From: Candidatus Marinacidobacterales bacterium
GTDB taxonomy: Bacteria > Acidobacteriota > Vicinamibacteria > Marinacidobacterales > DATDRI01
Length of the DNA stretch: 64,000 nt
Assembly (NCBI GenBank): GCA_965226495.1
Contig: OZ245365.1
Coordinates: 512,001 to 576,000 of the forward strand
Reading direction: 5' to 3'
The translations under genes were made by a program, and so were the position numbers. Below, piece after piece: positions 384 through 18,898 of this stretch. Below the pieces are notes generated by a model, which saw nothing but the letters and a program-made list of their open reading frames with translations, ran no database searches and was not told where the DNA came from. Within the stretch, counting starts at the first letter, position 1. The number at the start of each line of letters is the position of its first letter.

Positions 384-412
384 TTGATGGGAGAGCACAT
401 TAACAATATAAT
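384..412 (+). promoter_or_regulatory. Sigma70-type promoter of the TA operon, probably leaderless
   Basis: TTGATG (384-389), 17-nt spacer, TATAAT (407-412). ATG at 420 has no Shine-Dalgarno. Confidence 0.65.
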
Positions 413-419
413 AGTCAAT

Positions 420-653
420 ATGAAGACAATAGCCATTACTGTAGACGACGAGACGCTGGCCTTGATCGACGACCTCGGCTCCTCCGCCAAGTTCCGGAGT
501 CGCTCCGCGCTCGTGCGGGCAGCGATTCGGGAGTACGCCCAGCAGGTGCAGAGGAGCCGCGAGGAGGAGCGAGAGCGGGAGATCATTCGCAAGAACAAAG
601 ACGCCTTGGACCGGGAATTGAAAGCGTTGATTACAGAACAGGCGCGGAAGTGA
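420..653 (+). CDS. CopG/ribbon-helix-helix antitoxin
   Basis: MKTIAITVDDETLALID...SRSALVRAAIREY is an RHH pattern. Overlaps the toxin start (GTGA). Confidence 0.85.
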   Translation: MKTIAITVDDETLALIDDLGSSAKFRSRSALVRAAIREYAQQVQRSREEEREREIIRKNKDALDRELKALITEQARK

Positions 654-979
654 AACGAGGAGAAATCTATCGTACGAAGGAATCTGTACCCGAGCGGGGC
701 GGCAAGCCCGGTTTTTACGTGGTGGTATCGCGGGCCTTCATCGCCGCGAACGACGACGTCGGGACGGTTATTTGTGCCCCCGTCTACAGCAACGTCCTGG
801 GTCTTTCGACCGAGGTCATCGTCGGTCCTGACGAGGGCCTTCCCAAGACGTGTTCGATACGCTGCGACTTTCTCACCTTGATATTCAAATCCAAGCTAAC
901 GGGTTACGTGTCCAGACTGGCGGGAACTAGACTGGGGGAACTCAATAGAGCGCTGGCGCAGGTACTCGAAATCAACTAA
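650..979 (+). CDS. PemK/MazF family toxin (endoribonuclease)
   Basis: MKRGEIY...KPGFYVVVSR...VICAP...GLPKTCSIRCD, 109 aa, coupled to the RHH gene. Confidence 0.85.
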   Translation: MKRGEIYRTKESVPERGGKPGFYVVVSRAFIAANDDVGTVICAPVYSNVLGLSTEVIVGPDEGLPKTCSIRCDFLTLIFKSKLTGYVSRLAGTRLGELNRALAQVLEIN

Positions 980-4600: not shown

Positions 4601-4672
4601 CCTCGGAGGCCCCACACGTGATAAAAGAGAGGCCGAGTCGCGCGTCTCTATTTCATGGCAGGAGACACACAC

Positions 4673-5692
4673 ATGGGCGAGGAAAAAGGGAAGCTAACCC
4701 TCGAGGAGTTCGTGACCAGCCTCTACCATGGGGCGCGGGCGGACAATACCTTCAAGTTCCTCTACGGACAGCCGGAAGAAAAGCTTGACGCCTTTTTTCA
4801 AAAGCTTCTCCGGCAAGTGGTGGGAGCCGTCGATAGCGGTGACAGCGGGGCCTTAGGGGACTTTCTGCAGCAATCTCAGGTCGGCGGTTACACGTTTCCA
4901 CTCGACAAGCCTCCCTTCTGGGCTCCCAAGGTGCCGCAGGCCCCGGTCCCACTCGCCCGACTACGCAAGCCACTCTCGGAGGCGAGAGTCGCCTTGTTCT
5001 CGAGCGCGGCGGCGCGTCTCCCCGAGCAACCGACATTTCTGCCCGACGGGTTGGATCTGCCGGCCGCGACTCGGGACCCGATGAAATCGTTCGAACGATT
5101 TCCGAGCCTGCGCGAGATTCCGGCCGGTACCAATCCCGCACGCCTGGTCTTCGAGCACATCGCCTACGATTTGAACGCGGCGCAGCAAGACCCCAACGTC
5201 GTCTTTCCGCTGGATCGCTTCCGTACGCTTGCCGAGCAAGGTGTCATCAAGGTGGCGCCCAAGGCGTACTCCTACAAAGGGCTTTCCAACGTGCAGCACC
5301 TGGTCGAGACCACGGGGCCGGAATGGGCGGAGAAGGTGCGAGCGGACGGCGCGGATGCGGTGCTGTTGGTGCCCGGCTGACCCGTTTGTCACCTGTCCGT
5401 GGGACAGCTCGCGCGCGCCATCGAGACTAGTGGCATACCTACCGTGACGTTGTACATCGAAGCCTGGGAACCGATGGCCCGCTTGGTCCGTCCGCCTCGG
5501 GTGGTCACGACGCGATTCTTGCAAGGTCGGATCGTTGGCCCGCCGAATCGTAAGAACACCCAGCTGCGCGTTCTCGGGGACGCGTTGGAGTTCCTCAAGA
5601 ACGCCACCATGGACAACTGGTTGCTCCCGCTTCCTTTTACCTGGTCCGAAGCGCTTCGGGAGGGGACGCCAAGAAACGCCGGTCTAATTTAG
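4673..5692 (+). CDS. GrdB/PrdB-like reductase selenoprotein B (Sec at TGA 5378-5380)
   Basis: Track ORFs 4655-5380 and 5399-5692 are in one frame. Readthrough gives DAVLLVPG-U-PVCHLSVGQLARAIETSGIPTV. Also LRKPLSEARVAL and QDPNVVFPLDR. GGAG RBS before ATG 4673. Confidence 0.88.
5393..5407 (+). promoter_or_regulatory. Candidate SECIS hairpin
   Basis: CTGTCC-GTG-GGACAG; the loop G lies 19 nt after the UGA. Confidence 0.7.
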
Positions 5693-5714
5693 GCACTAGG
5701 GAGGAGTAAGAACG

Positions 5715-6776
5715 ATGGGAAGATCATCGGTCATTTTGGAGAGTCTGCCACTGCCTATGCTCACCGATTTCGCTCAGAAAGCCGATGAGCACGGCTACGA
5801 CACGGTTTGGAAGCCGGAGATCATTTTCTCCGATACATTTGTTCCTTCGACTGCGTTTGCGTTGAAGACGAAACGTGTCCATATCGGCTCGTGCATTGCG
5901 GGCATTTGGGGGCGGAGTCCGGTGGTCACCGCCTTGTCGGCGAGCGCGCTCGCCGAGCTATCGGGCAACCGGCTAATCCTTGGGCTCGGAACGCAGGCGC
6001 GTTCGTACGTCGAAGGTTGGCACGGTTTGTCTTATGACAGACCACTCACTCGTGCTCGAGAGCTCATCACTGTCATTAAGAAGATTCTCTCCGGCGAAGT
6101 CGTATCGTTCGAAGGAAAGACGATGAGCCTCCAGCATTTTCAGCTTGCCCTAACGGGGCCGCCTCCCAAAGTACCCATCTACTTGGCGGCGATTGGGCCC
6201 AAGATGACGCAGCTCGCTGGCGAGATCGCGGACGGGGTGATCGGCTACTTTCAGCCCATCAACTACTTCCGTGACACCTTCCTCAAAAATCTCGAGATCG
6301 GGGCCAAGAAGGCCGGGAGGACGCTCGACGACATAGACATCGTCGTCGGACACCCGGCTTTGGTCTCGGACGATCCGAAGGCGGTGGAGTGGATTAAGCC
6401 GCACGTTGTCATGTTCGCCACCGCCGGCGGCTCCTCGCCGACTTACGCAGGTATGGTGAAGTCAGCCGGTTTCGAGAAAAACCTGGAGGGAATGTTAGCG
6501 GGCATCGCCAACGGGAGCATGGATGAAGCGGCGAGCCACGTGAGCGACGAGATGGTCGAAGCGATGACGCTTTGTGGCACCGCGCAACACGTCGCCGACC
6601 GCATGGACGATTACCATCAGGCGGGCGTGAAGATGACGCTGATGAATCCCGTTCCACCGAAGGCATACTTTCCGCTCTTCGCGGGGCATTTTCCGGAGAC
6701 GATGGAGTTCCCCCAATCGGACGTCGAGGCCTTCGTTCAGAACGTGGACGATATCGTGACCAAGGTGCCCCTGTAA
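5715..6776 (+). CDS. LLM class flavin (possibly F420)-dependent oxidoreductase
   Basis: GYDTVWKPE, RSPVVTA, NRLILGLG, PIYLAAIGPKMTQLAGEIADG. Confidence 0.9.
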   Translation: MGRSSVILESLPLPMLTDFAQKADEHGYDTVWKPEIIFSDTFVPSTAFALKTKRVHIGSCIAGIWGRSPVVTALSASALAELSGNRLILGLGTQARSYVEGWHGLSYDRPLTRARELITVIKKILSGEVVSFEGKTMSLQHFQLALTGPPPKVPIYLAAIGPKMTQLAGEIADGVIGYFQPINYFRDTFLKNLEIGAKKAGRTLDDIDIVVGHPALVSDDPKAVEWIKPHVVMFATAGGSSPTYAGMVKSAGFEKNLEGMLAGIANGSMDEAASHVSDEMVEAMTLCGTAQHVADRMDDYHQAGVKMTLMNPVPPKAYFPLFAGHFPETMEFPQSDVEAFVQNVDDIVTKVPL

Positions 6777-6796
6777 AACTGTAAGCCTGTCGGCTT

Positions 6797-7660
6797 CTAA
6801 TGTGATTTGTGCGAACGCCGCGTGCGGGTCGGCGTGCGGGCATGGACTCCCTCGAACCCATAGTCCGTCTTCGCCAAGATGACGTGCGTAGGGCTGACCG
6901 CGTGCTTGTCTTCGAGGTAGGCGTTCAACATGGCCTGACCGGCCAGAATATTGATCTCCCGCGGGAATCCACCAGTGAATTCATATATCGTGTCACCGGC
7001 CTCTTTGGAAAAGACTCGACCGGGTTTTATGCTGCCCGCCGCCTTGAGTCGGTAAGATAGGTACTCAGTCGTCTCCCCTCGTGTCAGTGGTTTGAGCTCA
7101 TAACGCAAGCCGATTCTTTGGCGAAGCTGTCTGAGGCGTGGTCTTCTAAGACGCGTTACCAGCTCGGGCTGCCCCACCAAGCAGATGAGGATCAGCGGTC
7201 GTCCGTCTTCTTCCAAGTTGGACAACAGACGCACCTCCTCGAGAACCGAGTCGGTGAGGAGGTGAGCCTCGTCGAAGAACACAACCGGCCGCCGGCTTTC
7301 ACTCCCGTTGATAGCCAGGAACGTTTGTAGCCTTCGGACCAGTTTCGGCTTTGGCTCTCGGCTCACTGGGTCGAGGCCGAAGCAAACGCCCATCTCCTCC
7401 AAGAGCTCGCGCGGCTTGACGGTATTGTGGCTTATCACCGCAGTCGGTACGTCCGGGGGCGTCTTTTCGAGGATGGCTCTGATGGCGGTGGTTTTTCCTG
7501 TACCGACCTCGCCGGTCAGCAGGAAGAAGGCTTCCCCCATCTCTTGTGCGTAGCGGAAGTGTGCGCAGATCTCTTCTATTTCTTGGCTTGGATAGATGAA
7601 GTCGGATCGAGAGGCCGAGCCGAAAGGGTTCCTCCGAAGGTGAAAATGGGCCTCATGCAT
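6797..7660 (-). CDS. ExeA/GspA family AAA ATPase
   Basis: HFHLRRNPF, LTGEVGTGKTT (Walker A), DEAHLL, LVGQPEL, QLRQRI, TGGFPREIN. Confidence 0.9.
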   Translation of the reverse strand: MHEAHFHLRRNPFGSASRSDFIYPSQEIEEICAHFRYAQEMGEAFFLLTGEVGTGKTTAIRAILEKTPPDVPTAVISHNTVKPRELLEEMGVCFGLDPVSREPKPKLVRRLQTFLAINGSESRRPVVFFDEAHLLTDSVLEEVRLLSNLEEDGRPLILICLVGQPELVTRLRRPRLRQLRQRIGLRYELKPLTRGETTEYLSYRLKAAGSIKPGRVFSKEAGDTIYEFTGGFPREINILAGQAMLNAYLEDKHAVSPTHVILAKTDYGFEGVHARTPTRTRRSHKSH

Positions 7661-7883
7661 CGGGGCCTCGCCTCTCGTTTTCGCTGATTAAAGAGGAGGG
7701 TTTTCGCGGCAATCCTGCGGACAGGATGCCGAATTCTGCCCCCCTCGAAGCTAGTTCGTCTACCTGGGTGGGGCGAAGTTAGCACATCTGAGCCCGCGAG
7801 AAAAGCGCTCGTTCCGCTATCCAGAGATACCCCCAACTGAAAGCCACACGCCGTTCATGGTGACAGTCTTCACTGCGTACGGC

Positions 7884-8408
7884 TCATCGAATCAGGAAGA
7901 CTTCCTCATTGGGGGGCTGAATAAATTCAACACCTTTGTTGGTGATTATCTGAGGGTTTGAAATATTAAAGGCTAGTGGATAACCGGGCCTTTCCTTAAT
8001 ATTTTTATGGACCATATATTCAAAGGCGAAGAGATGATTCTCCTGTATTTTTAAGTGGTGTGTGTATGCTCGAAATGGCCCCATGGACGGGCCTTCTGTT
8101 CTAATATCCCATTCAACTTCCCCGGTATCGATGTTGTTATTGCCCATGCTGTGATTATCAACGGAAAATCCCGGTTTATCAGTATTCGCGAGAACCCTCT
8201 GGAGCATTTCGTAGTCTTTTTCTCCTCTATCGGTGAAAGGCGTATAGATATAGCCAGCCTTTTCCATAGCTTTCAGACGGAGTGCGTCCCGATCGGTCTT
8301 GGCCGTACGCGCCGGCAGTGGGCTGATGGAAACGGCACTCTCCTGCGCATTGACAGCAGGCACTATGAACATCAGAGAAATTAGAAAGCTTGTAAATCGA
8401 GATAACAT
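7884..8408 (-). pseudogene. Signal peptide joined to an apparent M24 peptidase C-terminus (internal deletion); lower GC than flanks
   Basis: MLSRFTSFLISLMFIVPAVNA signal, then DNHSMGN...FAFEYMVH...IITNKGVEF. Only 174 aa. Confidence 0.5.
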
Positions 8409-8422
8409 GACTCCCTCCAAGA

Positions 8423-8872
8423 TCACCTGGATTGGTAGTTCGGCGCATCGATATAGACGAAATCTCTCATGATCTTTTCTTCATCAAAGTAGATGAAGTA
8501 GATCATGTCTCCCGCTTCGAAGATTCGGACGACCGGCCACGTGCGGCCGTTGGTGAGAATCTCGTCCCGTTTCTGGTCTCCCCATTCGGAGACCCATTGG
8601 GCAAGCTCCTCCTCTCCTTCGGGAGAGGCGATGAGAGGGGCCTTCTCTTTGAGGCCCTCGACGACCTGGTATAGCGACGGTTCCTGGTCCAGAACCCCTT
8701 GGAGTCGAGCTTGGTGGAGTGTCATGCGGCGGACGTGGTAACCGTAAACGCCCAAGACCAGGGCGATGATCAGTCCAGCCGCGGCCAAGGCAAGGCCGAA
8801 AGTGCCCGCGAGGACGAGAAGCTTCTTGTTGCGCTCGCGTTCGTCGGTGGCCTTCGGAAGAGCCTCGAACAC
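8423..8872 (-). CDS. Hypothetical single-TM protein
   Basis: 149-aa ORF with one N-terminal TM helix, co-oriented with neighbours. Confidence 0.7.
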   Translation of the reverse strand: MFEALPKATDERERNKKLLVLAGTFGLALAAAGLIIALVLGVYGYHVRRMTLHQARLQGVLDQEPSLYQVVEGLKEKAPLIASPEGEEELAQWVSEWGDQKRDEILTNGRTWPVVRIFEAGDMIYFIYFDEEKIMRDFVYIDAPNYQSR

Positions 8873-8902
8873 TGTCGTGTAGCTAAGAGTGGCAGGACCG
8901 AG

Positions 8903-10180
8903 TCAAGACGTTAGCTCCATCTTCGTCTCGCGAGCCACGCGCTCGACTTCTCGCCAAACACGTAGCAGGTTGCCGCCCCAGAGTTTTTCGATGTCTTCCT
9001 CGGTGTAGCCGCGTCGCACCAGTTCAATGGTAACGTTCAAGGTTTCACTGGCATTGTTCCACCCGTTGATGCCGCCGCCTCCGTCGAAATCGGAGCTGAT
9101 GCCGACATGGTCGATGCCGATGAGCGCGACGGCGTGATCGATGTGGTCGACGAAATCAGAGACGGTGGCCTTGGGCCACTTCTCGTCGAGCTCCACCATC
9201 TTCCTCCGGATCTCTTCCCTCTGTGCGTCGGTGCGGTCACTGCTCGCGCCGGCGTTCCCCATTTCCTCGAACAGCGCCCGCCGCGCAGCGGCTTTTTCGG
9301 GCTGCTTCTTGACGAAACTATCGAGCGCCACCATTTGGATCACGCCGCCGTTCTCCTTGAGTGCAAGCAACTGTTCGTCGTCCATATTACGAGCCACGTC
9401 GGACAACGCTTTCGTGCTCGAGTGCGAGCCGATGACCGGCGCACGGCTAAGCTGGGCCGCTTCGAGCATTGCTTTTTTCGAGATGTGCGAGACGTCGACC
9501 ATGATACCGATCCGATTCATTTCCGCGATGACTTGTTCGCCGAACTCGCTGATGCCGCCATGCTCCTCTTCTGCGTCGCCGAGCCGTTCCCGAGGCGTCG
9601 AGGAGTCGGCGATGTCGTTATGCCCGCCGTGCGCGAGGGTGATGTAGCGTGCTCCGAGCGCATGGTACTTTTCGAGCAAGCTCAAGTCCTTACCGATGAC
9701 GTAGCCGTTCTCGATACCGATACAGGCAACGAGCTTGCCGTCGGCGTGGATTTGCTCGACTTCGTCCGCGGTATAGGCAAGCTCGATCTCGTCCGGATAC
9801 ATCTCTTCCGTCATGCGGTGGATAGCGTCGAATTTCACCATCGCATCGGCCTTCGCTTTTTCGTAGTTCTCGGCAGTCCTCTCCGTCTGGCCGACGTAGA
9901 CGATGAAAAAGCCCGCGTCGAGCCCGCCTTCCTTCATTTTCGGGATGTCCACCTGTCGTTCCCCACGGACTCCGGGGTCGACTTCGGCGGTCGCGAAGTT
10001 CTCGGGAATATCGTCGTGGGTATCGATGGTGAGGACGCGCTCGTGAATCGCCTTGGCCTTGGCGACGATTTCCTCCTCGGTGAGTTCTTGGACGTCACCC
10101 GTGGTGGTGGATTCTTGGGAACCGCTTTCACACGCGACAACCGCGAGGATGAAGCTTAGAAGAAAGGCTTTATGCAGCAT
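8903..10180 (-). CDS. Membrane dipeptidase (peptidase M19), lipoprotein
   Basis: IDTHDD, GIENG, YITLAH, MVDVSH, SHSS, HVGISSDFDGGGG, KLWGGN; lipobox VVAC; AAGGGAG RBS. Confidence 0.92.
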   Translation of the reverse strand: MLHKAFLLSFILAVVACESGSQESTTTGDVQELTEEEIVAKAKAIHERVLTIDTHDDIPENFATAEVDPGVRGERQVDIPKMKEGGLDAGFFIVYVGQTERTAENYEKAKADAMVKFDAIHRMTEEMYPDEIELAYTADEVEQIHADGKLVACIGIENGYVIGKDLSLLEKYHALGARYITLAHGGHNDIADSSTPRERLGDAEEEHGGISEFGEQVIAEMNRIGIMVDVSHISKKAMLEAAQLSRAPVIGSHSSTKALSDVARNMDDEQLLALKENGGVIQMVALDSFVKKQPEKAAARRALFEEMGNAGASSDRTDAQREEIRRKMVELDEKWPKATVSDFVDHIDHAVALIGIDHVGISSDFDGGGGINGWNNASETLNVTIELVRRGYTEEDIEKLWGGNLLRVWREVERVARETKMELTS

Positions 10181-10199
10181 GAGTGTCTCCCTTTTATCG

Positions 10200-10240
10200 G
10201 AGGCCTGGGGCCCCACCCCCAGGCCTCGCGCTTCGTCGGC
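10200..10240. repeat. REP-like hairpin element, copy 1
   Basis: GAGGCCTGGGG-CCCCAC-CCCCAGGCCTC followed by ..TTCGTCGGCG; related copy at 18538. Confidence 0.65.
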
Positions 10241-10375
10241 GGGCGACTGCGCGCGGGCTGAAGGCTCCGACCGAAGGCGCGCCGATTCTAAAGCCGGAAT
10301 CACGCCACTGCAAGTCGGGCGACTTGAGAAAGAGAGCCAAAACCTCTAAGTTATAGTGCTTCAAAGGGAGTACGC

Positions 10376-11647
10376 ATGCCGAATCAAGTTGACAGCAAGC
10401 TCGTCGCAAAGGCAGTGGACAAGATCGATCGGTCCCGACTGGTCGACCTGGTGGTTGAGCTCACCAACGTCCCGAGCCCGACCGGTCACGAGGCCGAGGT
10501 GGCCCACACGTTTCACGAGGTTCTGGGAGGGGCGGGGTTTCGCCCGACTCTCCAGCCCATCGGGGACGGTCGTTACAACGCCATCGGGATTCTAGAAGGA
10601 GCCGGCGGTGGCAAGTCTTTGCTGTTCAACGGCCATCTCGACACGTCTTTCGGTGCGGAGTTGGCCGACCGCGGCATCGGTTACCGGACCGAGGCCACCA
10701 TCGTCGATGACGAGTGGATTTACGGCATGGGCTCGTTCAACATGAAGAGCGCTCTAGCTGCTTATACTGTTGCATCCCAGGCGATCCAGGCGGCGGGCAT
10801 TCGTCTCGCTGGAGACATCGTGATCGCGGGCGTGGCCGGTGAGATCGAGAAAGCCCCCACTGGCGAGTACGACGACCCCAAGTACCAGGGTTACGGTGTG
10901 GGCACGAAGTTCGCCATTACCCATGGCGCGGCGGCCGATTATTGCATCCTGGGAGAGCCCACGAACATGAAGGTCATCCCGCGTCATTGCGGGACGACCT
11001 GGCTCAAGATCAAGATTCCGGGCGTTTTGATCCATACCGCCTGGAGCGAGCTCGAGCAGAACGCCATCCTCCATGCCGGACTCGTGCTGAGCGCCCTCAA
11101 CGAATGGATCGACCAATATCGCGCGAAACATGCGATCGGCGAATTTCGACCCAAGGTCAATATCGCGGCGATTGAAGGAGGCTGGCCCTGGCGGGGAGCG
11201 CGGTCACCGGACTCTTGTTCGATCTACATGGACGTGCGTACGGTGCCTGGTGTTTGGCCAGTGGAGGTTTATCGCGAGGTCAGAGAGGTTATTCGAGCGT
11301 TGGTGAAGAAGCACTCGAAGCTCGAGGGTACGATTGTCGACCTTTACGTATCGGCTCCCGGAACTTCCATCCCTGATGACCACGAACTGATCCAAACGGT
11401 GGTTCAGGCGCATACCGATCAGCTCGGCAAGGCGCCGGAGCTCGGAATCGAGAACTGGTATAGCGATGCCGCGCACATGAACCGCTACGGGATCCCGACC
11501 GTGAACTACGGCTCCGCAGGACGGATCCGGACCGGCGGCGGGGGCTTCTCGACTCATCAAGGGGAGCACGTCCATATCGGCGATCTCTACGACATCGTCA
11601 AGGTTTACATCCAAGCCGCGATGTCTCTCTGCGGCGTCGCAAGCTAA
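10376..11647 (+). CDS. M20 family (ArgE/DapE-like) metallo-hydrolase
   Basis: VPSPTGHE, LLFNGHLDT, IYGMGSFNMKSA, ILGEPT, YSDA, GIPTVNYG. Confidence 0.88.
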   Translation: MPNQVDSKLVAKAVDKIDRSRLVDLVVELTNVPSPTGHEAEVAHTFHEVLGGAGFRPTLQPIGDGRYNAIGILEGAGGGKSLLFNGHLDTSFGAELADRGIGYRTEATIVDDEWIYGMGSFNMKSALAAYTVASQAIQAAGIRLAGDIVIAGVAGEIEKAPTGEYDDPKYQGYGVGTKFAITHGAAADYCILGEPTNMKVIPRHCGTTWLKIKIPGVLIHTAWSELEQNAILHAGLVLSALNEWIDQYRAKHAIGEFRPKVNIAAIEGGWPWRGARSPDSCSIYMDVRTVPGVWPVEVYREVREVIRALVKKHSKLEGTIVDLYVSAPGTSIPDDHELIQTVVQAHTDQLGKAPELGIENWYSDAAHMNRYGIPTVNYGSAGRIRTGGGGFSTHQGEHVHIGDLYDIVKVYIQAAMSLCGVAS

Positions 11648-11675
11648 ACTCAAGTCCCAGCTTGGGAGGTGTTCT

Positions 11676-13608
11676 ATGACCCGCCAGTCTTGGCTTTATG
11701 GGCTTTCCATGCTGTTCGCTTGCATGCTGGCGTCCTGCGCGCCTGCAGTCGAGGAACGAGTGGTTCCGATCTACGACGCAGCGACTTTTCACGAGACGAC
11801 CACCATTTCGGGTGCCTCGTTTTCTGCCGACGAATCGCAGCTCCTCATGAGCTCCGACGAGTCGGGCATCTTCAACGTGTATGCACAGCCGTTTGCGGGA
11901 GGTGATCCGAAACAGCTGACTCACTCCACCACGGATGCGCATTTCGCAGTCAGTTGGTTCCCCGAAGACGACCGGTTTCTCTTCAGAGCTGACAAAGGTG
12001 GGGACGAACTGGACCACCTGTTCGTGCAGGATGCCGACGGCAACGTAACCGATCTGACTCCCGGCGAGAACCTGAAGGCCTCGTTCGCTGGCTGGAGCAA
12101 GGACCAACAGTCCTTCTAGGTACAGACCAACGAGCGGGATCCAAAGTTCTTCGATGTCTATCGCTACTCGGCGAGCGACTACGAGCGGAGTCTCGTCTTC
12201 CAGAACGAGGACGGTTGGCAGGTTGGCGCGGTGAGCGACGATGGGCGATGGCTCGCGCTCAACCAGGTGATCGACAACGCCGACAGCAATCTCTTCGTGG
12301 CCGATCTCGAGTCGCCGGATGCATCTCCCAATCTGATCACCGAGCACGAGGGGGCCGATTGTTCATCAGCCGATGGGATTCGGTCCCGAGAACCGAAGCC
12401 TCTACTACCTCACCGACGGCTATGGCGAGTTCATGCAGGCGTGGTCCTACGAGCTCGAAAACGGCGAGCATCAGCCGGTGGTCGAGGCGGACTGGGACGT
12501 CATGTATGTCTACTTCTCCGAGGAAGGGCGCTATCGCGTCACCGCGCTCAACGAAGACGCACAAACGGTCTTATCGATCCTGGACACCGAGACCGGAGAG
12601 GATCTCGCTCTGCCCGAGTTGCCGGACGGGGATGTCACCGGGGTTCGGATCTCGCGTAGCGAAGAACGTATGACGTTTTACGTGAATAGCGATACATCTC
12701 CTTCGAATCTCTACGCGTTCGACATCGCGGCCCACGAGCATCGGAGCCTGACCAACACGTTGAATCCCGCCATCGATCGGACGAATTTGGTCGAAGGGGA
12801 CGTCGTTCGGTACGAGAGCTACGACGGGCTGAAGATTCCATCGGTGCTCTATCGTCCGCATCAAGCCTCTCCCGCAGCACCCGTTCCGGCCATGGTCTGG
12901 GTCCACGGCGGGCCGGGTGGGCAGAGTCGGAAGGGCTACCGCGCGACGATTCAGCATCTTGCGAATCACGGCTATGCGGTCCTCGCCGTCAACAACCGTG
13001 GCTCGTCCGGCTACGGGAAAACGTTCTACCACTTGGACGATAAGAAACATGGCGAGGTGGATCTACAGGACGTTGTCTGGTCGCGGAAGTATCTCGAGTC
13101 ACTCGACTGGGTGGACGGCACCCGCGTCGGCATCATCGGCGGCAGCTACGGTGGCTATATGGTCGCCGCCGCCCTTGCCTTCGAGCCCGAGGTCTTCGAC
13201 GTTGGGGTGGACATCTTCGGAGTGACCAACTGGGTCCGGACGATCAAGAGCATTCCGCCCTGGTGGACGGCCCAGAAGGACCGGCTCTACGCGGAGCTTG
13301 GGAATCCGTATGAGGAGGAAGAGCGACTCCGCGGGATTTCTCCTTTGTTTCATGCCGGCAACATTACGAAGCCGCTCCTCGTCGTTCAAGGGGCGAACGA
13401 CCCTCGGGTCCTCCAGGTGGAGAGCGATGAGCTCGTCGCCGCGGTCGAGGCGAACGGCATCCCGGTGGAGTACATCATTTTTCCGGACGAAGGGCATGGT
13501 TTCGACAACAAGGCCAACCGCGTCACTGCCTCCGACCGTTACGTGGCTTTCTTGGACAAATACTTGAAGGGCGAGGGCGCCGAGTCTTCCGCGCCTGCCA
13601 CAGAGTAA
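11676..13608 (+). pseudogene. S9 family (prolyl oligopeptidase-like) lipoprotein, interrupted
   Basis: VHGGPGGQ, GGSYGG, QGANDPRV, DEGHGF. In-frame TAG at 12117-12119 and a frameshift near 12360. Confidence 0.88.
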
Positions 13609-13643
13609 CTCGCCAGGCTGCCTGGAGTTTGACACTTGAGGGC

Positions 13644-13661
13644 GTCTTGACATGTCAAGAC
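13644..13661. promoter_or_regulatory. Perfect 18-bp palindrome, probable TA autoregulatory operator
   Basis: GTCTTGACA|TGTCAAGAC over the antitoxin start; TTGACA at 13629-13634. Confidence 0.65.
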
Positions 13662-13876
13662 CATGGCGCCCACTCAAAATTAGCTCCAAAGTAGACGAAT
13701 CGGTCTGGAACGACCTGAAACAGGTAGCCTCGGATTCTCACCAGAGCATCTCAGGCCTACTCACCGAGGCGATCCGGGAGTACCTTCGGCGCCGAAGGGT
13801 CCGGCCGGACGTCCTCCGGGACCTCGACGCTTCCATAGCGGAGAACGAGAAGCTGGGCCGCCTCCTTGCCGACTAA
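13652..13876 (+). CDS. RHH-type antitoxin
   Basis: KISSKVDESVWNDLK...SISGLLTEAIREYL; overlaps the Doc gene start. Start codon uncertain. Confidence 0.75.
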   Translation: MSRPWRPLKISSKVDESVWNDLKQVASDSHQSISGLLTEAIREYLRRRRVRPDVLRDLDASIAENEKLGRLLAD

Positions 13877-14253
13877 GTCGGTTGTTTTCCTAACCGTCGA
13901 TGAAGCTCTGGCGATTCACGACCGGCTCATTCAAGAGTTCGGCGGACCGGTTGGAGTCCGCGATTTAGGCCTTCTCGAAAGCGCCCTGTTCCGGCCGCAG
14001 ACCGGCTACTACGATGACATCGCCGAGATGGCCACGGCTCTTTTCGAATCTTTGCTAATGAATCATCCCTTCGACGGGAACAAGCGGGTGGCCTTCTTTG
14101 CGACGGACGTATTTCTCACTGAACGGCTGGAAACTCGAAGTAGATCCTGACGAAGCCCACCGTCGTCTCATCGGTCTCCTCGAGCAGGGTCGGTGTGACT
14201 TCGAGCATTTGCTGCCATGGCTCCGAGAGTCGTTGGTGCGGCGACGAGGTTGA
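13866..14253 (+). pseudogene. doc: Doc/Fic family toxin, frameshifted
   Basis: IHDRLI..FGG..GVRDLGLLESAL; HPFDGNKR is one residue short of HPFxDGNKR; frameshift near 14118 continues as LNGWKL...RRRG*. Confidence 0.85.
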
Positions 14254-14319
14254 ATCGGACCGCGTGGATTCGCTAGTATTGCCCCCGGTCATGAATGGTC
14301 AGGTGACGGGGGGGGATCG

Positions 14320-15129
14320 ATGGCACAGCAAGCGCTCCATGAGCTCTTAAGAAACGCGAAGGTCTACGACCTCGGTCAGCCCTATTGGCCCGGAATGCCG
14401 GTCCATCCCTTCGATCCGCCGTTCCAGTTCTACCTCTATCGGTACCATGAGTACGTCGCGAAGCTTTTCGAAGAGATCGAGCCGGGGTTCGCTGATGCTA
14501 TCAGCCTGATCATTACTTCCATGCACTCCGGAACGCACTTCGACGTACCGGTGCACATGTCGCAGGATCTGAAGGTCCTCGGCATTGATCCCACGCCCTA
14601 CCAGCGCGACACCGGTTTCGTCGATCTACCCGAGCCGCTCCACAGCATGGAAAAAGTTCCTCCGCTCATTCTCAAGGCGGTACTGCTGGACGTGCCCGCT
14701 TACAAAGAGGTGGACATTCTGCCCGAACGCTACGCCATCACTCCCGAGGATCTGGAGGGCGCGGCCAAAGCGGCGAACGTCCCGATCCAAGAGGGCGATT
14801 GCGTTTTGATCCGGACCGGGTATTCGCGGTTTTTCGAGACCGACGGGGAGAAGTACCTCTACAAGTGGGCGGGGCTGAACGACGCCGCGGCGCAATGGGT
14901 GGCGGACAAGAAGCCGCGCCTGGTAGGTACGGACAATCTTTCGATTGGAGTCCCCGCACCATTTGCCGCGCACCGAATCTTGATGGTCGAAAACGGCATC
15001 TATGTGATGAAGAGCCTGAAGCTCGAGGAGATGTCGAAAGACGCTCGTTTCGACTCGACGGTGATCGTGCTGCCCTTGAAGCTCAAGGGTGGCGAGGCGT
15101 CGCTGGTGCGACCGATAGCCCTGGCCTGA
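14320..15129 (+). CDS. Cyclase family (kynurenine formamidase-like) protein
   Basis: HSGTHFDVP, GDCVLIRTG, VGTDN, PLKLKGGEASLVRPIA. Confidence 0.9.
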   Translation: MAQQALHELLRNAKVYDLGQPYWPGMPVHPFDPPFQFYLYRYHEYVAKLFEEIEPGFADAISLIITSMHSGTHFDVPVHMSQDLKVLGIDPTPYQRDTGFVDLPEPLHSMEKVPPLILKAVLLDVPAYKEVDILPERYAITPEDLEGAAKAANVPIQEGDCVLIRTGYSRFFETDGEKYLYKWAGLNDAAAQWVADKKPRLVGTDNLSIGVPAPFAAHRILMVENGIYVMKSLKLEEMSKDARFDSTVIVLPLKLKGGEASLVRPIALA

Positions 15130-15160
15130 CAGCCTGACAGCCTGACAGGTTGACAGCCTG
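15125..15160 (+). repeat. Short tandem repeat of 8-bp unit CCTGACAG
   Basis: Three exact copies plus GTTGACAG and a partial copy, spanning the cyclase stop codon. Confidence 0.7.
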
Positions 15161-15288
15161 CCCCGCGATCGGGCGTCGCACCGTCTTTATTATTATAATG
15201 GGTTGGGTTGGGGGCGGCGTTACGCTCCTCCCACGGCTAAATAGCTACCCTGTCAAATACTACTGGGACTTTCTGAGAGGCAGCCAAA

Positions 15289-16485
15289 ATGAACACCGGA
15301 GTATCGCCGGATCAAATCTGGATAAGTGATCTGAACAAGGACGAGGAGATTCAGTCGCCTTTCGACCGCACGACCCCCGTCCGCTTTTACGACACCACGT
15401 TGCGGGACGGCGAGCAGACGGTGGGTGTGGTCTTCACGCCGGATGAAAAGGTCGAGATCGCCCGAAAGCTCTCAGACCTCAAGGTCGGCCGTATCGAAGC
15501 GGGGTTCCCGAGGGTCTCCGAGGCGGACACGGAAGCGGTGAAGCGCATCGCGGAGGCTGGACTGGAATCGGAGATCTATGGATTTTCACGGGCGGTGATC
15601 CAAGATCTGGATGCCCTCATTGAGCTCGGGCTGAAGGGGACCGTCATCGAGATCTCCACCAGTGACATCAAGATGAAGGCGTATGGTTTCACGCGCGAAA
15701 AGGTTATCCAACGCGCGACAGACGCCATCAAGCACGCCCGTGCACACGACATGAAGGTTACCTTTTTTCCGGTAGACAGCACGCGGAGCGATCTTGCGTT
15801 CTTGCGCGACGTCTACGCGGCCGCGATCGACGCCGGAGCAGAAGAAGTCGCCATTGTTGACACCATCGGGGCTTGCTCCCCGGAAGCAGTGGAAACGCTA
15901 GTACGCGTAGTGCGGAGTTGGGTGGGGCCGGACATTCCGGTCCACTTTCATGGGCACGACGACTTCGGCCTGGCGACGGCATCCGCCATTGCCGCGGTGA
16001 GGGGTGGTGCTCGCTGGATACAAGGCACTATTAACGGAATGGGCGAGCGCGCCGGCAATGCCGACATCGTGGAAGTCGCCTTGGCACTCCAATGTCTTTA
16101 CAACGTTCCCGTCGAGCTGGACCTGAAGAAAGCTCGGGAAGTCTCGCAAGTCGTGCAGAAGGCCGGAGGTTATCGTGTCGATAGTTGGAAGCCGGCGGTC
16201 GGCGAGAATCTCTTTGTGCGTGAAAGCGGGGCGGTGGCCAGCCAGTTCCATATCCCCGAAGCCATCGAGCCATACTCGTCCGACATCGTGTCCGCAGATC
16301 GGAAGATCGTACTGGGCAAGAAGAGCGGCGTCGCCAGCGTCCAGCTGAAGGTGAAGGAGCTGGGACTCGATGTCCCCGAGGATAAAATCGCCCCGATTTT
16401 GGCCGAGGTCAAGAGCCAAGGAACCCAAAAGGGTCGACTGATTACGGACGACGAGTTTAGAAAGGTAGTCCAAGAGCTGTCATGA
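15289..16485 (+). CDS. Homocitrate/isopropylmalate synthase-like DRE-TIM enzyme (no regulatory domain)
   Basis: YDTTLRDGEQ, IEAGFP, DTIG, HGHDDFGLA, NGMGERAGNA, LGKKSG. Confidence 0.88.
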   Translation: MNTGVSPDQIWISDLNKDEEIQSPFDRTTPVRFYDTTLRDGEQTVGVVFTPDEKVEIARKLSDLKVGRIEAGFPRVSEADTEAVKRIAEAGLESEIYGFSRAVIQDLDALIELGLKGTVIEISTSDIKMKAYGFTREKVIQRATDAIKHARAHDMKVTFFPVDSTRSDLAFLRDVYAAAIDAGAEEVAIVDTIGACSPEAVETLVRVVRSWVGPDIPVHFHGHDDFGLATASAIAAVRGGARWIQGTINGMGERAGNADIVEVALALQCLYNVPVELDLKKAREVSQVVQKAGGYRVDSWKPAVGENLFVRESGAVASQFHIPEAIEPYSSDIVSADRKIVLGKKSGVASVQLKVKELGLDVPEDKIAPILAEVKSQGTQKGRLITDDEFRKVVQELS

Positions 16486-17549
16486 TGAGCGTGAAAGTAG
16501 GTATCATTTTCAAGTCGTACGAGCCGATGTCCGCCATCCAGGCGTATGCCCGGCAAACCGAGGAGTCGAACCTGAGTGGCGGATTTTGGATCGCGGAGGC
16601 CTACCACTGGTTTCGTAAGTACGGTCACGAGTCGCGCGGGTGTATGGCCACCTTGGCGGCAGCGGTTACCGCGACCAAGAAGATTCCCATCGGCCTCGGT
16701 ATCACCTCCCCATACGTCCGGCATCCGACCGCCCAGGCGTCCGAGGCGGTGGCTTTGGACGAGCTTTCGGGTGGACGGTTCACCATGGGTCTCGGTGCCG
16801 GTAAAGTCGGGATCGTTTATTTGGAGGTCGACCTCAAGAAGCAGTCGCCGGTCAAGGTTCATCGAGAGTCGATCGAGATCTTCCGTGGCATCGTGAAGGG
16901 CGAGAAGTTCACCTACAAAGGAGATCTCTATCAGGCCGATGTTCCGGCCATGGATCGGGCCGGCCGGGGGCTTCGGACGTACATCCCGGTTTACATCGGA
17001 GCGACCGGACCGTACTTGCAGCAGCTTGCTGGCAAGATCGCGGACGGCCTGCTCTTGCCCGGTTTGACCAATCCCGGATTCGTCAGCTACGCCAAAGACA
17101 ACCTCGCCAAGGGTTTCGAAAAAGCGGGCCGCAAAGCGGATCCGGACTATCCGGTGGGCGGCGTGATCCTGGCGGCTTGCTCGCGGGATGGCGCCAAGGC
17201 TCGTGATGCGGCGCGCAGCTACACCGGCACCTACATCATCAACAAGCTTCGGAATATCCAGAACGATGTCATTCTGAGCAGCTCTGGACTGCCGGATGAG
17301 ACCTGGAAACCGTTCCGAGCCGCCATCGAAGCCGGCACTGAGGACAACGTGACCTCGTTGGTGAGCGACGACGTGATGCGAAAGTTTACGGTGATCGCCG
17401 GGACACCCGACGACTGTCTGGAACTCTTGCAGCAACTCGTTGATGCGGGGCTCAATTTGCCGCTCATGGAAGTGGTGGGCGCTAGCCAAGAAGACAACTT
17501 GGAGACCATTCGTCTCTTAGGCGAAGAAGTGGTCCCCAAGCTCAAATAG
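16482..17549 (+). CDS. LLM class flavin-dependent oxidoreductase
   Basis: FWIAE, SPYVRHP, DELSGGRFTMGLG, PVYIGATGP, AGKIADG. Confidence 0.9.
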   Translation: MMSVKVGIIFKSYEPMSAIQAYARQTEESNLSGGFWIAEAYHWFRKYGHESRGCMATLAAAVTATKKIPIGLGITSPYVRHPTAQASEAVALDELSGGRFTMGLGAGKVGIVYLEVDLKKQSPVKVHRESIEIFRGIVKGEKFTYKGDLYQADVPAMDRAGRGLRTYIPVYIGATGPYLQQLAGKIADGLLLPGLTNPGFVSYAKDNLAKGFEKAGRKADPDYPVGGVILAACSRDGAKARDAARSYTGTYIINKLRNIQNDVILSSSGLPDETWKPFRAAIEAGTEDNVTSLVSDDVMRKFTVIAGTPDDCLELLQQLVDAGLNLPLMEVVGASQEDNLETIRLLGEEVVPKLK

Positions 17550-17564
17550 GGGAGTGGACGTCAG

Positions 17565-18524
17565 ATGAAGTTAGCGACATTCAAGAAGAAGGGCGACGAC
17601 AAGCCGACCACCGGTGCTTTTCTGGAAGATCTCTATATCGATCTGCCCGCGTTGACAGACGGTGAGATCCCCTCGGCAATGTTGGATTTTCTCTGGGCAG
17701 GAGACGCGGCGATGCGTAAGGCGCGTTCGGCACTCGAGGGGCTGGGGGGAGAGCTCAAGAAGGGGAGTCCGGATGCGCTCACGACCTCGAGCGGCAAGCG
17801 GTACGCGTACCGTCCCGACGAGATCGAGCTCATGGCTCCGGTTCCGCGCCCCGGCAAGATCATCCACACCGCGTGTAATTTCCCCGCGCACCTCAAAGAG
17901 CTGACGACCTGGAGTGAGCCGGAATGGAAGTCTCACGATTGGAAGACCTTTAGCTTCGAGCACCCCACGGGTTTCCTGCAGGCTCCCTCCTCGGTCTCGG
18001 CCTCGGGAGCCAAAGTGCCGGTGCCACATTTCACGAAGCAGCTCGACTATGAAGTCGAAGTGGCTACCATCATCGGTAAGGAAGCGTTCCGGGTGAGTGT
18101 CGAAGACGCCCTCGACTACGTTGCCGGCTTCGCGGTTTTCAACGATCTGTCGGCGCGCGATATCCAGGCGCGCGAGCACTCTAACCGCGTGATTTATCTT
18201 GGCAAGAGCTTCAACGGATCGTGCCCGCTGGGTCCGCACCTCGTGACCAAGGACGAGATTTCTGATCCCGTGAACCTCAGCATGAAGTTATTCGTGAACG
18301 GCGAAGTGCGTCAGGATTCGAACACTTCGCAGATGCAGTACAAGTTTGCGGAGATGGTCTCCTGGTGGTCGAACACGACTCTCGAGCCTGGAGACGTGAT
18401 CACGAGCGGGAGCCCTCCGGGAGTTGCGGCCGGAATGGAGAGCCCACGTTGGCTGCAGCCTGGGGACGTCGTCGAGGGTGTGGTCGAGGGACTCGGCACG
18501 CTGACGAGCCATATCGTCAAGTAG
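17565..18524 (+). CDS. Fumarylacetoacetate hydrolase family protein
   Basis: QLDYEVE, NDLSARDIQ, GKSF, PLGP, LEPGDVITSGSPPGV. Confidence 0.92.
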   Translation: MKLATFKKKGDDKPTTGAFLEDLYIDLPALTDGEIPSAMLDFLWAGDAAMRKARSALEGLGGELKKGSPDALTTSSGKRYAYRPDEIELMAPVPRPGKIIHTACNFPAHLKELTTWSEPEWKSHDWKTFSFEHPTGFLQAPSSVSASGAKVPVPHFTKQLDYEVEVATIIGKEAFRVSVEDALDYVAGFAVFNDLSARDIQAREHSNRVIYLGKSFNGSCPLGPHLVTKDEISDPVNLSMKLFVNGEVRQDSNTSQMQYKFAEMVSWWSNTTLEPGDVITSGSPPGVAAGMESPRWLQPGDVVEGVVEGLGTLTSHIVK

Positions 18525-18537
18525 GAAATTGGTGTTA

Positions 18538-18577
18538 AGCCGTGGGGCCCCACCCCCACGGCTCGGTTTCGTCGGCG
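18538..18577. repeat. REP-like hairpin element, copy 2
   Basis: AGCCGTGGGG-CCCCAC-CCCCACGGCT followed by ..TTCGTCGGCG; lies between convergent genes. Confidence 0.65.
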
Positions 18578-18631
18578 CTACGCGCCGGGCTCCCTCCGGT
18601 CGCGCAGGCCGATCCGTTTTTCATCAGCCTG

Positions 18632-18898
18632 CTAGTCTTTGTCACGCGCTTCCCGGAATTGGGCGCGCACCCGTCCCGCGGCTACCGCCATCACAATCGA
18701 CTGCGCCGCACCGATCTCTTCATCGGTTAACCCCTCGTCTTTGGCGACGCCAAAGTAGTGCTTCATTCAGGGATAGCAGCCAAGAGCCAAGGCGGAGGCG
18801 AAATGAATGAGCACGGTCTCTTTCGGCGTTAAGAACTTGTTGCGCCTTGCCGAGCGATAGAACTGGTTGAAAGCGTTTTTCTGTTCTTCTGGCAGCAT
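18632..18898 (-). CDS. CMD/AhpD-like selenoprotein, 88 aa, CxxU (Sec at 18767-18769)
   Basis: Hand translation: MLPEEQKNAFNQFYRSARRNKFLTPKETVLIHFASALALGCYPUMKHYFGVAKDEGLTDEEIGAAQSIVMAVAAGRVRAQFREARDKD*. GAGGTGAAGGG precedes the ATG. Absent from the ORF track. Confidence 0.88.
18739..18755 (-). promoter_or_regulatory. Candidate SECIS hairpin
   Basis: CTTTGGC-GTC-GCCAAAG on the coding strand; the loop G lies 19 nt after the UGA. Confidence 0.72.

Follow-up and report, generated by a model that had tools for sequence, protein, structure and literature searches.

Two UGA-proximal hairpins of a Candidatus Marinacidobacterales genome are very likely minimal SECIS elements of a known bacterial pattern rather than a rule of their lineage

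This study concerns two in-frame UGA codons and the hairpins that follow them in a 64,000-nucleotide stretch of DNA (the window) from Candidatus Marinacidobacterales bacterium, taken from the 6.34 Mb contig OZ245365.1 of assembly GCA_965226495.1. The contig is called G000:C1 below, the window being G000:C1:512001-576000, and hairpin positions (+n) are counted from the UGA. Two genes that the annotation had split are corrected here as genes read through UGA, and each carries downstream of its predicted selenocysteine (Sec) codon a candidate selenocysteine insertion sequence (SECIS). In window coordinates, the features are:

4655..5692, plus strand: gene for a PrdB/GrdB-like selenoprotein (345 aa with its single UGA read through; U242, UxxC)
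5378..5380, plus strand: in-frame UGA, predicted Sec codon of the PrdB/GrdB-like gene (TGA in 28/31 loci, TGC/TGT in 3/31)
5393..5407, plus strand: hairpin 1, putative SECIS (6 bp, GUG triloop at +19, 5399-5401)
18632..18898, minus strand: gene for a CMD/AhpD-like selenoprotein (88 aa with its single UGA read through; U44, CxxU; PF02627 above cut-off)
18767..18769, minus strand: in-frame UGA, predicted Sec codon of the CMD gene (TGA in 43/46 loci, TGC in 1, another codon in 2 that are poorly aligned)
18739..18755, minus strand: hairpin 2, putative SECIS (7 bp, GUC triloop at +19, 18748-18746)

The PrdB/GrdB-like gene has an alternative start codon, ATG at 4673. Its product scores above the cut-off of PF07355 and matches TIGR04483 with an E value of 1.6e-33 but below the cut-off of that model. 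It also scores under the equivalog cut-offs of PrdB, GrdB, GrdF and GrdH, in which it differs from the PrdB/GrdB selenoproteins. Both UGAs are in frame and occupy the Cys/Sec position of their protein families. The selenoprotein families in Table 1 of PMC13188914 include CMD-like (PF02627, CxxU) and GrdB/PrdB (PF07355/TIGR04483, UxxC) proteins, which have the same domains and Sec motifs as the two window proteins. In addition, selA, selB, tRNA-Sec (selC) and selD are all present in the genome, each above its family cut-off, and selD itself has an in-frame TGA. Over the winged helices WH1-4 of its C-terminus, SelB aligns with the structures of the SelB fragments 1LVA/2UWM (E 6.8e-25), as well as with 1WSU, and thus gives no hint of an unusual reader protein.

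The two hairpins are RNA signals under conservation and very likely true minimal SECIS elements. An earlier note on this DNA had proposed them as such, and the geometry that it described is present: +13..+18 pairs with +22..+27 around GTG at +19 after TGA 5378-5380 (plus strand), and +12..+18 pairs with +22..+28 around GTC at +19 after TGA 18769-18767 (minus strand), with a C18-G22 closing pair at both sites. The shape is rare. Across the whole genome, both strands included, C-GTN-G at +18..+22 follows 578 of the 169,872 TGA trinucleotides, and only 3 of those 578 have at least six Watson-Crick pairs around it, namely the two window sites and G000:4671450, the in-frame TGA of an ASPIC/UnbV gene, flanked by 584 and 373 open codons. 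When G-U pairs are allowed, the strict pattern is found at 5 of 169,871 TGAs. The bare string TGA-N17-CGTNG is uninformative without the stem, as it gives hundreds of matches per genome, about as many as in a reversed control.

For hairpin 2, the CMD set comprised 46 loci, among them that of the window itself; two or more genomes entered it twice. A triloop at +19 with at least six pairs is present in 40 of the 43 TGA loci, the other three having a 5-nt loop on six pairs, and G+19 is found in all 43, while the hairpin stem was not found in the sole Cys (TGC) homologue. Thirty-seven loci were aligned after six loci of one search, the TGC homologue and the two poorly matching loci had been removed; in the 34 distinct rows, 99.2% of the stem cells are paired, compared to 23-58% in slid controls, with two-sided changes at 5 of the 7 pairs. 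Gly is almost always encoded by GGC and Ala by GCC in these homologues, and amino acids change jointly with the pairs being kept. The closest homologue (86%) comes from a Candidatus Marinacidobacterales record. It was also observed that the stem arms couple amino acids, Phe/Leu at codon 5 pairing with the Lys/Arg codons at codon 9, and that Gly-Val-Ala is altered together in two rows of the alignment.

Hairpin 1 shows a similar picture among 31 PrdB-like loci, 28 with TGA and 3 with Cys. Eighteen of the TGA loci have a triloop at +19 and eight have C-A in place of C18-G22 on a stem of 7-8 bp; the last two are a UxxU form without hairpin and a copy shifted by one base, which are also the exceptions to the conservation of G+19 (26/28). 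The stem is found in none of the three Cys homologues. The alignment contained 26 rows, without the three Cys homologues, a duplicate and the copy shifted by one base; over 25 distinct rows, 94% of the stem cells are paired (slid controls, 11-50%) and two-sided changes occur at 3 of the 6 pairs. A metagenome scan for the gene yielded 2 loci, one of which spans the site. The UxxU homologue has two in-frame TGAs, and the hairpin is absent at +19 of the first. The covariation analysis called for by the earlier note gave compensatory changes in both families, and these, together with the absence of the stem after Cys codons, back its proposal of minimal SECIS elements.

Several observations weigh against this interpretation. 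Neither hairpin is more stable than shuffled sequences (z 0.37 for site 1 and -0.61 for site 2), and a competing fold appears for site 1 when +10..+55 is folded. An Rfam scan of either hairpin with E up to 5 gave chance hits and no SECIS match, while the positive control, the fdnG site of this genome, matches SECIS_3 (RF01989) with 68 bits against a gathering threshold of 63. The covarying positions lie in the coding sequence of related genes, so that kinship and protein constraint inflate the counts; yet the slid controls and the Cys forms agree with them. Finally, the 29 candidate Sec sites used for comparison below were chosen by eye from coding-score lists and form an incomplete set, which omitted at least G000:3214897. 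The folding energies over 43 nt, a window different from that of the published SECIS program, are -11.6 kcal/mol (site 1) and -8.9 kcal/mol (site 2), both within the published limit of -7.5 kcal/mol or lower.

The near-zero stability scores, along with the presence of Val at codon 7 in most homologues, would fit hairpins that are by-products of conserved amino acids (e.g., F-G-V-A-K) with no role in recoding. This is very improbable, as GGC and GCC are used almost throughout, amino acids change jointly so that the pairs survive, two-sided changes affect more than half of the pairs in one family and half in the other, and the stem is lost in Cys homologues. With the hairpins read as SECIS elements, we infer that the loop G (G-U) would be the binding site of SelB, which would bring selenocysteine to the UGA that lies immediately before the hairpin.

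The earlier note went further and presented the shared geometry as the recognition rule of SelB in this lineage, which would then specifically need a C18-G22-closed GUN triloop at +19. This rule is rejected: the pattern is specific but not general. Candidate Sec sites were listed without use of hairpins, from dicodon coding scores around TGA, within-genome Cys alignment and motifs judged by eye, and NCBIfam and Pfam served to check their families (38 proteins); one of the 29 sites first came from the strict rule (C-GUN-G at +19). The specificity is in its favor, as the three matches among all TGAs of the genome lie in long open frames, and elsewhere the rule fits no stop codon (0 of 1,736 UGA and 0 of 2,427 others) and, among 10,408 in-frame Cys codons, only 2; it is thus not equally frequent after ordinary stops. 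However, it holds at 3 of the 29 candidate sites and at none of the 26 that remain once the two window sites and the one that it found itself are set aside. It is absent from selD and from both formate dehydrogenases (fdnG, fdhA) of this genome, known selenoprotein genes that already refute it as the sole rule. Similarly, none of 30 selD loci of the phylum fits; among the TGA forms, 15 of 20 show their triloop at +18 (7) or +21 (8), compared to none of the 10 Cys forms. The replacement of C18-G22 by C-A in 8 of the 28 PrdB-like TGA loci also speaks against a required closing pair.

Nor is the register the lineage's own. In the CMD family, the +19 register is also found in Chloroflexota, Desulfobacterales, Gemmatimonadota, Fidelibacterota and Planctomycetales records; therefore, it follows the gene family and not the lineage. 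Overall, a SelB with such a specific need is barely credible. Within each gene family, the C-GUN-G register at +19 is passed on by descent (codon 7 being GUN, Val), and it is a single value out of a range. It is no surprise to find the same register at two Sec sites, as a random pair coincides in about 17% of cases (39/225), a value derived from 15 triloop starts (three each at +18, +19, +20 and +22; one each at +21, +23 and +26). The SelB of this genome would have to accept single-hairpin loops from about +17 to +27, with G-U or G-G and various closing pairs.

The least probable reading, that the UGAs are true stops or are decoded as Cys by an alternative tRNA, could draw on a second tRNA with a UCA anticodon reported by ARAGORN (G000:176351) and on the description of a tRNA-ReC decoding UGA as Cys (PMC13582414), but this candidate was rejected as a 3′ partial duplicate of tRNA-Sec that lacks the 5′ acceptor strand and scores 45.6 against the Rfam cut-off of 47, and UGA is kept at the Cys/Sec position in 43/46 CMD and 28/31 PrdB-like loci. 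As a separate observation, this duplication of the 3′ part of tRNA-Sec lies about 2.4 kb downstream (G000:C1:173953-176447) and resembles the attachment-site scar of an insertion in selC.

The two hairpins, read as SECIS elements, are new cases of a known bacterial pattern, and their shared shape falls within the published consensus. In bacteria, the stem of the SECIS hairpin usually spans 6-8 bp, with a conserved G some 20 nt past the UGA, and a hinge in SelB absorbs differences in spacing (PMC4605307). As summarized in PMC13188914, the consensus model of Zhang and Gladyshev (2005) includes a loop of 3-9 nt, a stem of 4-16 bp, a spacing of 16-37 nt and a G in the first two loop positions, usually as G[G|U], with the pattern N1-G-[G|U]-N-N2 in which N1 and N2 pair; some SECIS elements fall outside this model. 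The window elements are hairpins within the open reading frame (ORF), just 3′ of the UGA, that agree in loop (3 nt), stem (6 and 7 bp) and spacing (18 nt), and C-GUN-G fits N1-G-U-N-N2. They differ from the consensus by the lack of a clear lower stem and by their one fixed register, neither of which is essential. The fdnG SECIS of E. coli also presents a GUC triloop after the UGA, at +20, as does the fdnG loop of this genome; this is one base further 3′ than in the window hairpins, and the E. coli element is without the C-G closing pair. The bulged U17, which is required in E. coli (PMC8659212), is absent from both window hairpins, and neither of them scores against the formate dehydrogenase models SECIS_2 and SECIS_3 of Rfam.

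At a few Sec sites of this genome, the loop with G lies much further from the UGA. In a TxxU peroxiredoxin (G000:C1:3323044, plus strand), two hairpins abut: the first, of 7 bp, has a loop without G at +20, and the second, of 8 bp, has an AGUU loop from +38 with G-U at +39 (z -3.72 against shuffles). TGA is found in all 34 peroxiredoxin matches from 201 genomes of the class, and selB was present in the five carriers checked (5/5). Among these 34 homologues, 11 of the 12 codons in the stems are free of synonymous change, compared to 3 of the 28 flanking codons (Fisher p 1.7e-6, uncorrected for kinship). Stem changes preserve G-U pairs, and no two-sided change was found in the stems of the 34 homologues. 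The G-less first loop could alternatively be the true signal; the first loop varies among homologues and the AGUU loop is invariant. A protein search for Cys forms gave five matches, and many distant peroxiredoxins of the phylum have one hairpin with a GGC loop at +24.

In selD (G000:C1:5697808, plus strand), all TGA-bearing family members (5 of 5) combine two hairpins, the first with 4 bp and a variable loop, the second with a GU[A/U] triloop at +34; therefore, the G-U at +19/+20 of this genome's own selD is not conserved. A UshA-like selenoprotein (G000:C1:1641479, minus strand) shows GGC as its triloop at +29 in every locus (6/6), but it is weak as a third tandem case, its first hairpin (from about +9) having 3-4 bp and not being predicted in one of the six homologues. 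Four Sec sites have their G-loop hairpin at +28..+40; at three of them, one being the weak UshA-like case, a spacer hairpin abuts it, compared to 89 of 1,281 control codons (7%); the excess has a binomial p of 0.001, but the criteria were set after the cases had been seen. Such a spacer hairpin, placed directly 5′ of the SECIS stem and with a variable, unrecognized loop, would fold out 11-17 nt. With the spacer folded out, the G lies at an effective position of about +22 in the peroxiredoxin and +18 to +23 in selD, which is the range of the single hairpins. The chances are about even, judging from these sequences, that SelB reads the folded distance rather than the nucleotide count, and that a tandem class of elements places the G-U loop far from the UGA. 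The SelB of this genome likely also takes loops at +34 and +38 behind a spacer hairpin. No description of tandem or spacer-hairpin SECIS elements was found in the literature searched, to which Zhang and Gladyshev 2005, the Eubacterium SECIS papers and one groundwater survey did not belong.

The earlier note had also suggested that the pattern could be used to find hidden selenoproteins. This stands in part: the strict form added one site only, and a loosened form added four more. The looser rule, written after the sites had been seen, asks for a G[G/U]N triloop starting at +17..+26 with at least six pairs. It fits 15 of the 29 Sec sites compared to none of 1,736 UGA stops, 5 of 2,427 other stops and 23 of 10,408 Cys codons; adding loops of 4-6 nt raises the count to 21 of 29 Sec sites and to 25 of 1,736 UGA stops. 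Candidate Sec sites in the genome number at least 34, the published maxima given in PMC13188914 being 57 and 63 selenoprotein genes. The four sites added by the loosened scan, followed by a further candidate gene, are:

G000:2431243: OsmC-like Sec site
G000:1596567: second Sec of a UXX-star protein
G000:C1:5009845, plus strand: protein carrying TPR repeats at its C-terminus, PTAGTU motif with the TGA, GGUC as hairpin loop at +25
G000:C1:252333, minus strand: small membrane protein, TGA in 6 of 7 homologues and TGC in 1
G000:C1:1240224, minus strand: cobalamin-independent methionine synthase (MetE)-like, UGA where two paralogues have Cys, GGU triloop at +20

The TGA of the TPR-repeat protein is kept in the three homologues that cover the site (3/3), and the small membrane protein has no Pfam or NCBIfam match and matched no family in Table 1 of PMC13188914. 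Two FG-GAP/ASPIC-UnbV genes and a further long gene with a similar motif (G000:C1:3214897, minus strand) carry an in-frame UGA followed by a G-loop hairpin at +18/+19. Table 1 of PMC13188914 lists neither the MetE-like nor the ASPIC/UnbV nor the propeller family. Other in-frame TGAs were set aside by eye because they probably represent nonsense mutations, genuine stops or artefacts of the reading frame (G000:1902028, 5593682, 1974811, 1309024, 5693921 and 6324271), and the same grounds applied to G000:974897, 286319, 177827, 3688330 and 3414200.

In the surroundings of the two genes, a luciferase-like monooxygenase gene (window 5715-6776, plus strand) begins 23 bases past the PrdB-like gene, and at window 384-979 (plus strand) a PemK/MazF-like gene comes after a small ORF, the two probably forming a toxin-antitoxin pair of type II.

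The two window elements thus provide clean, covariation-backed examples of what very probably is the minimal, non-E. coli type of SECIS, which is useful but expected. The looser rule, about 200-fold enriched at Sec sites, offers a cheap finder in a selenoprotein-rich genome. If the tandem layout is real, the spacer hairpin would account for the larger spacings in the published range of 16-37 nt and leave some five extra codons after Sec open to protein sequence design, and it would allow a direct test of how SelB tolerates a spacing of 16-37 nt compared to the approximately 13 unpaired nt of the ribosome model (PMC4605307). It would also supply a design rule for the placement of SECIS elements in engineered selenoproteins.

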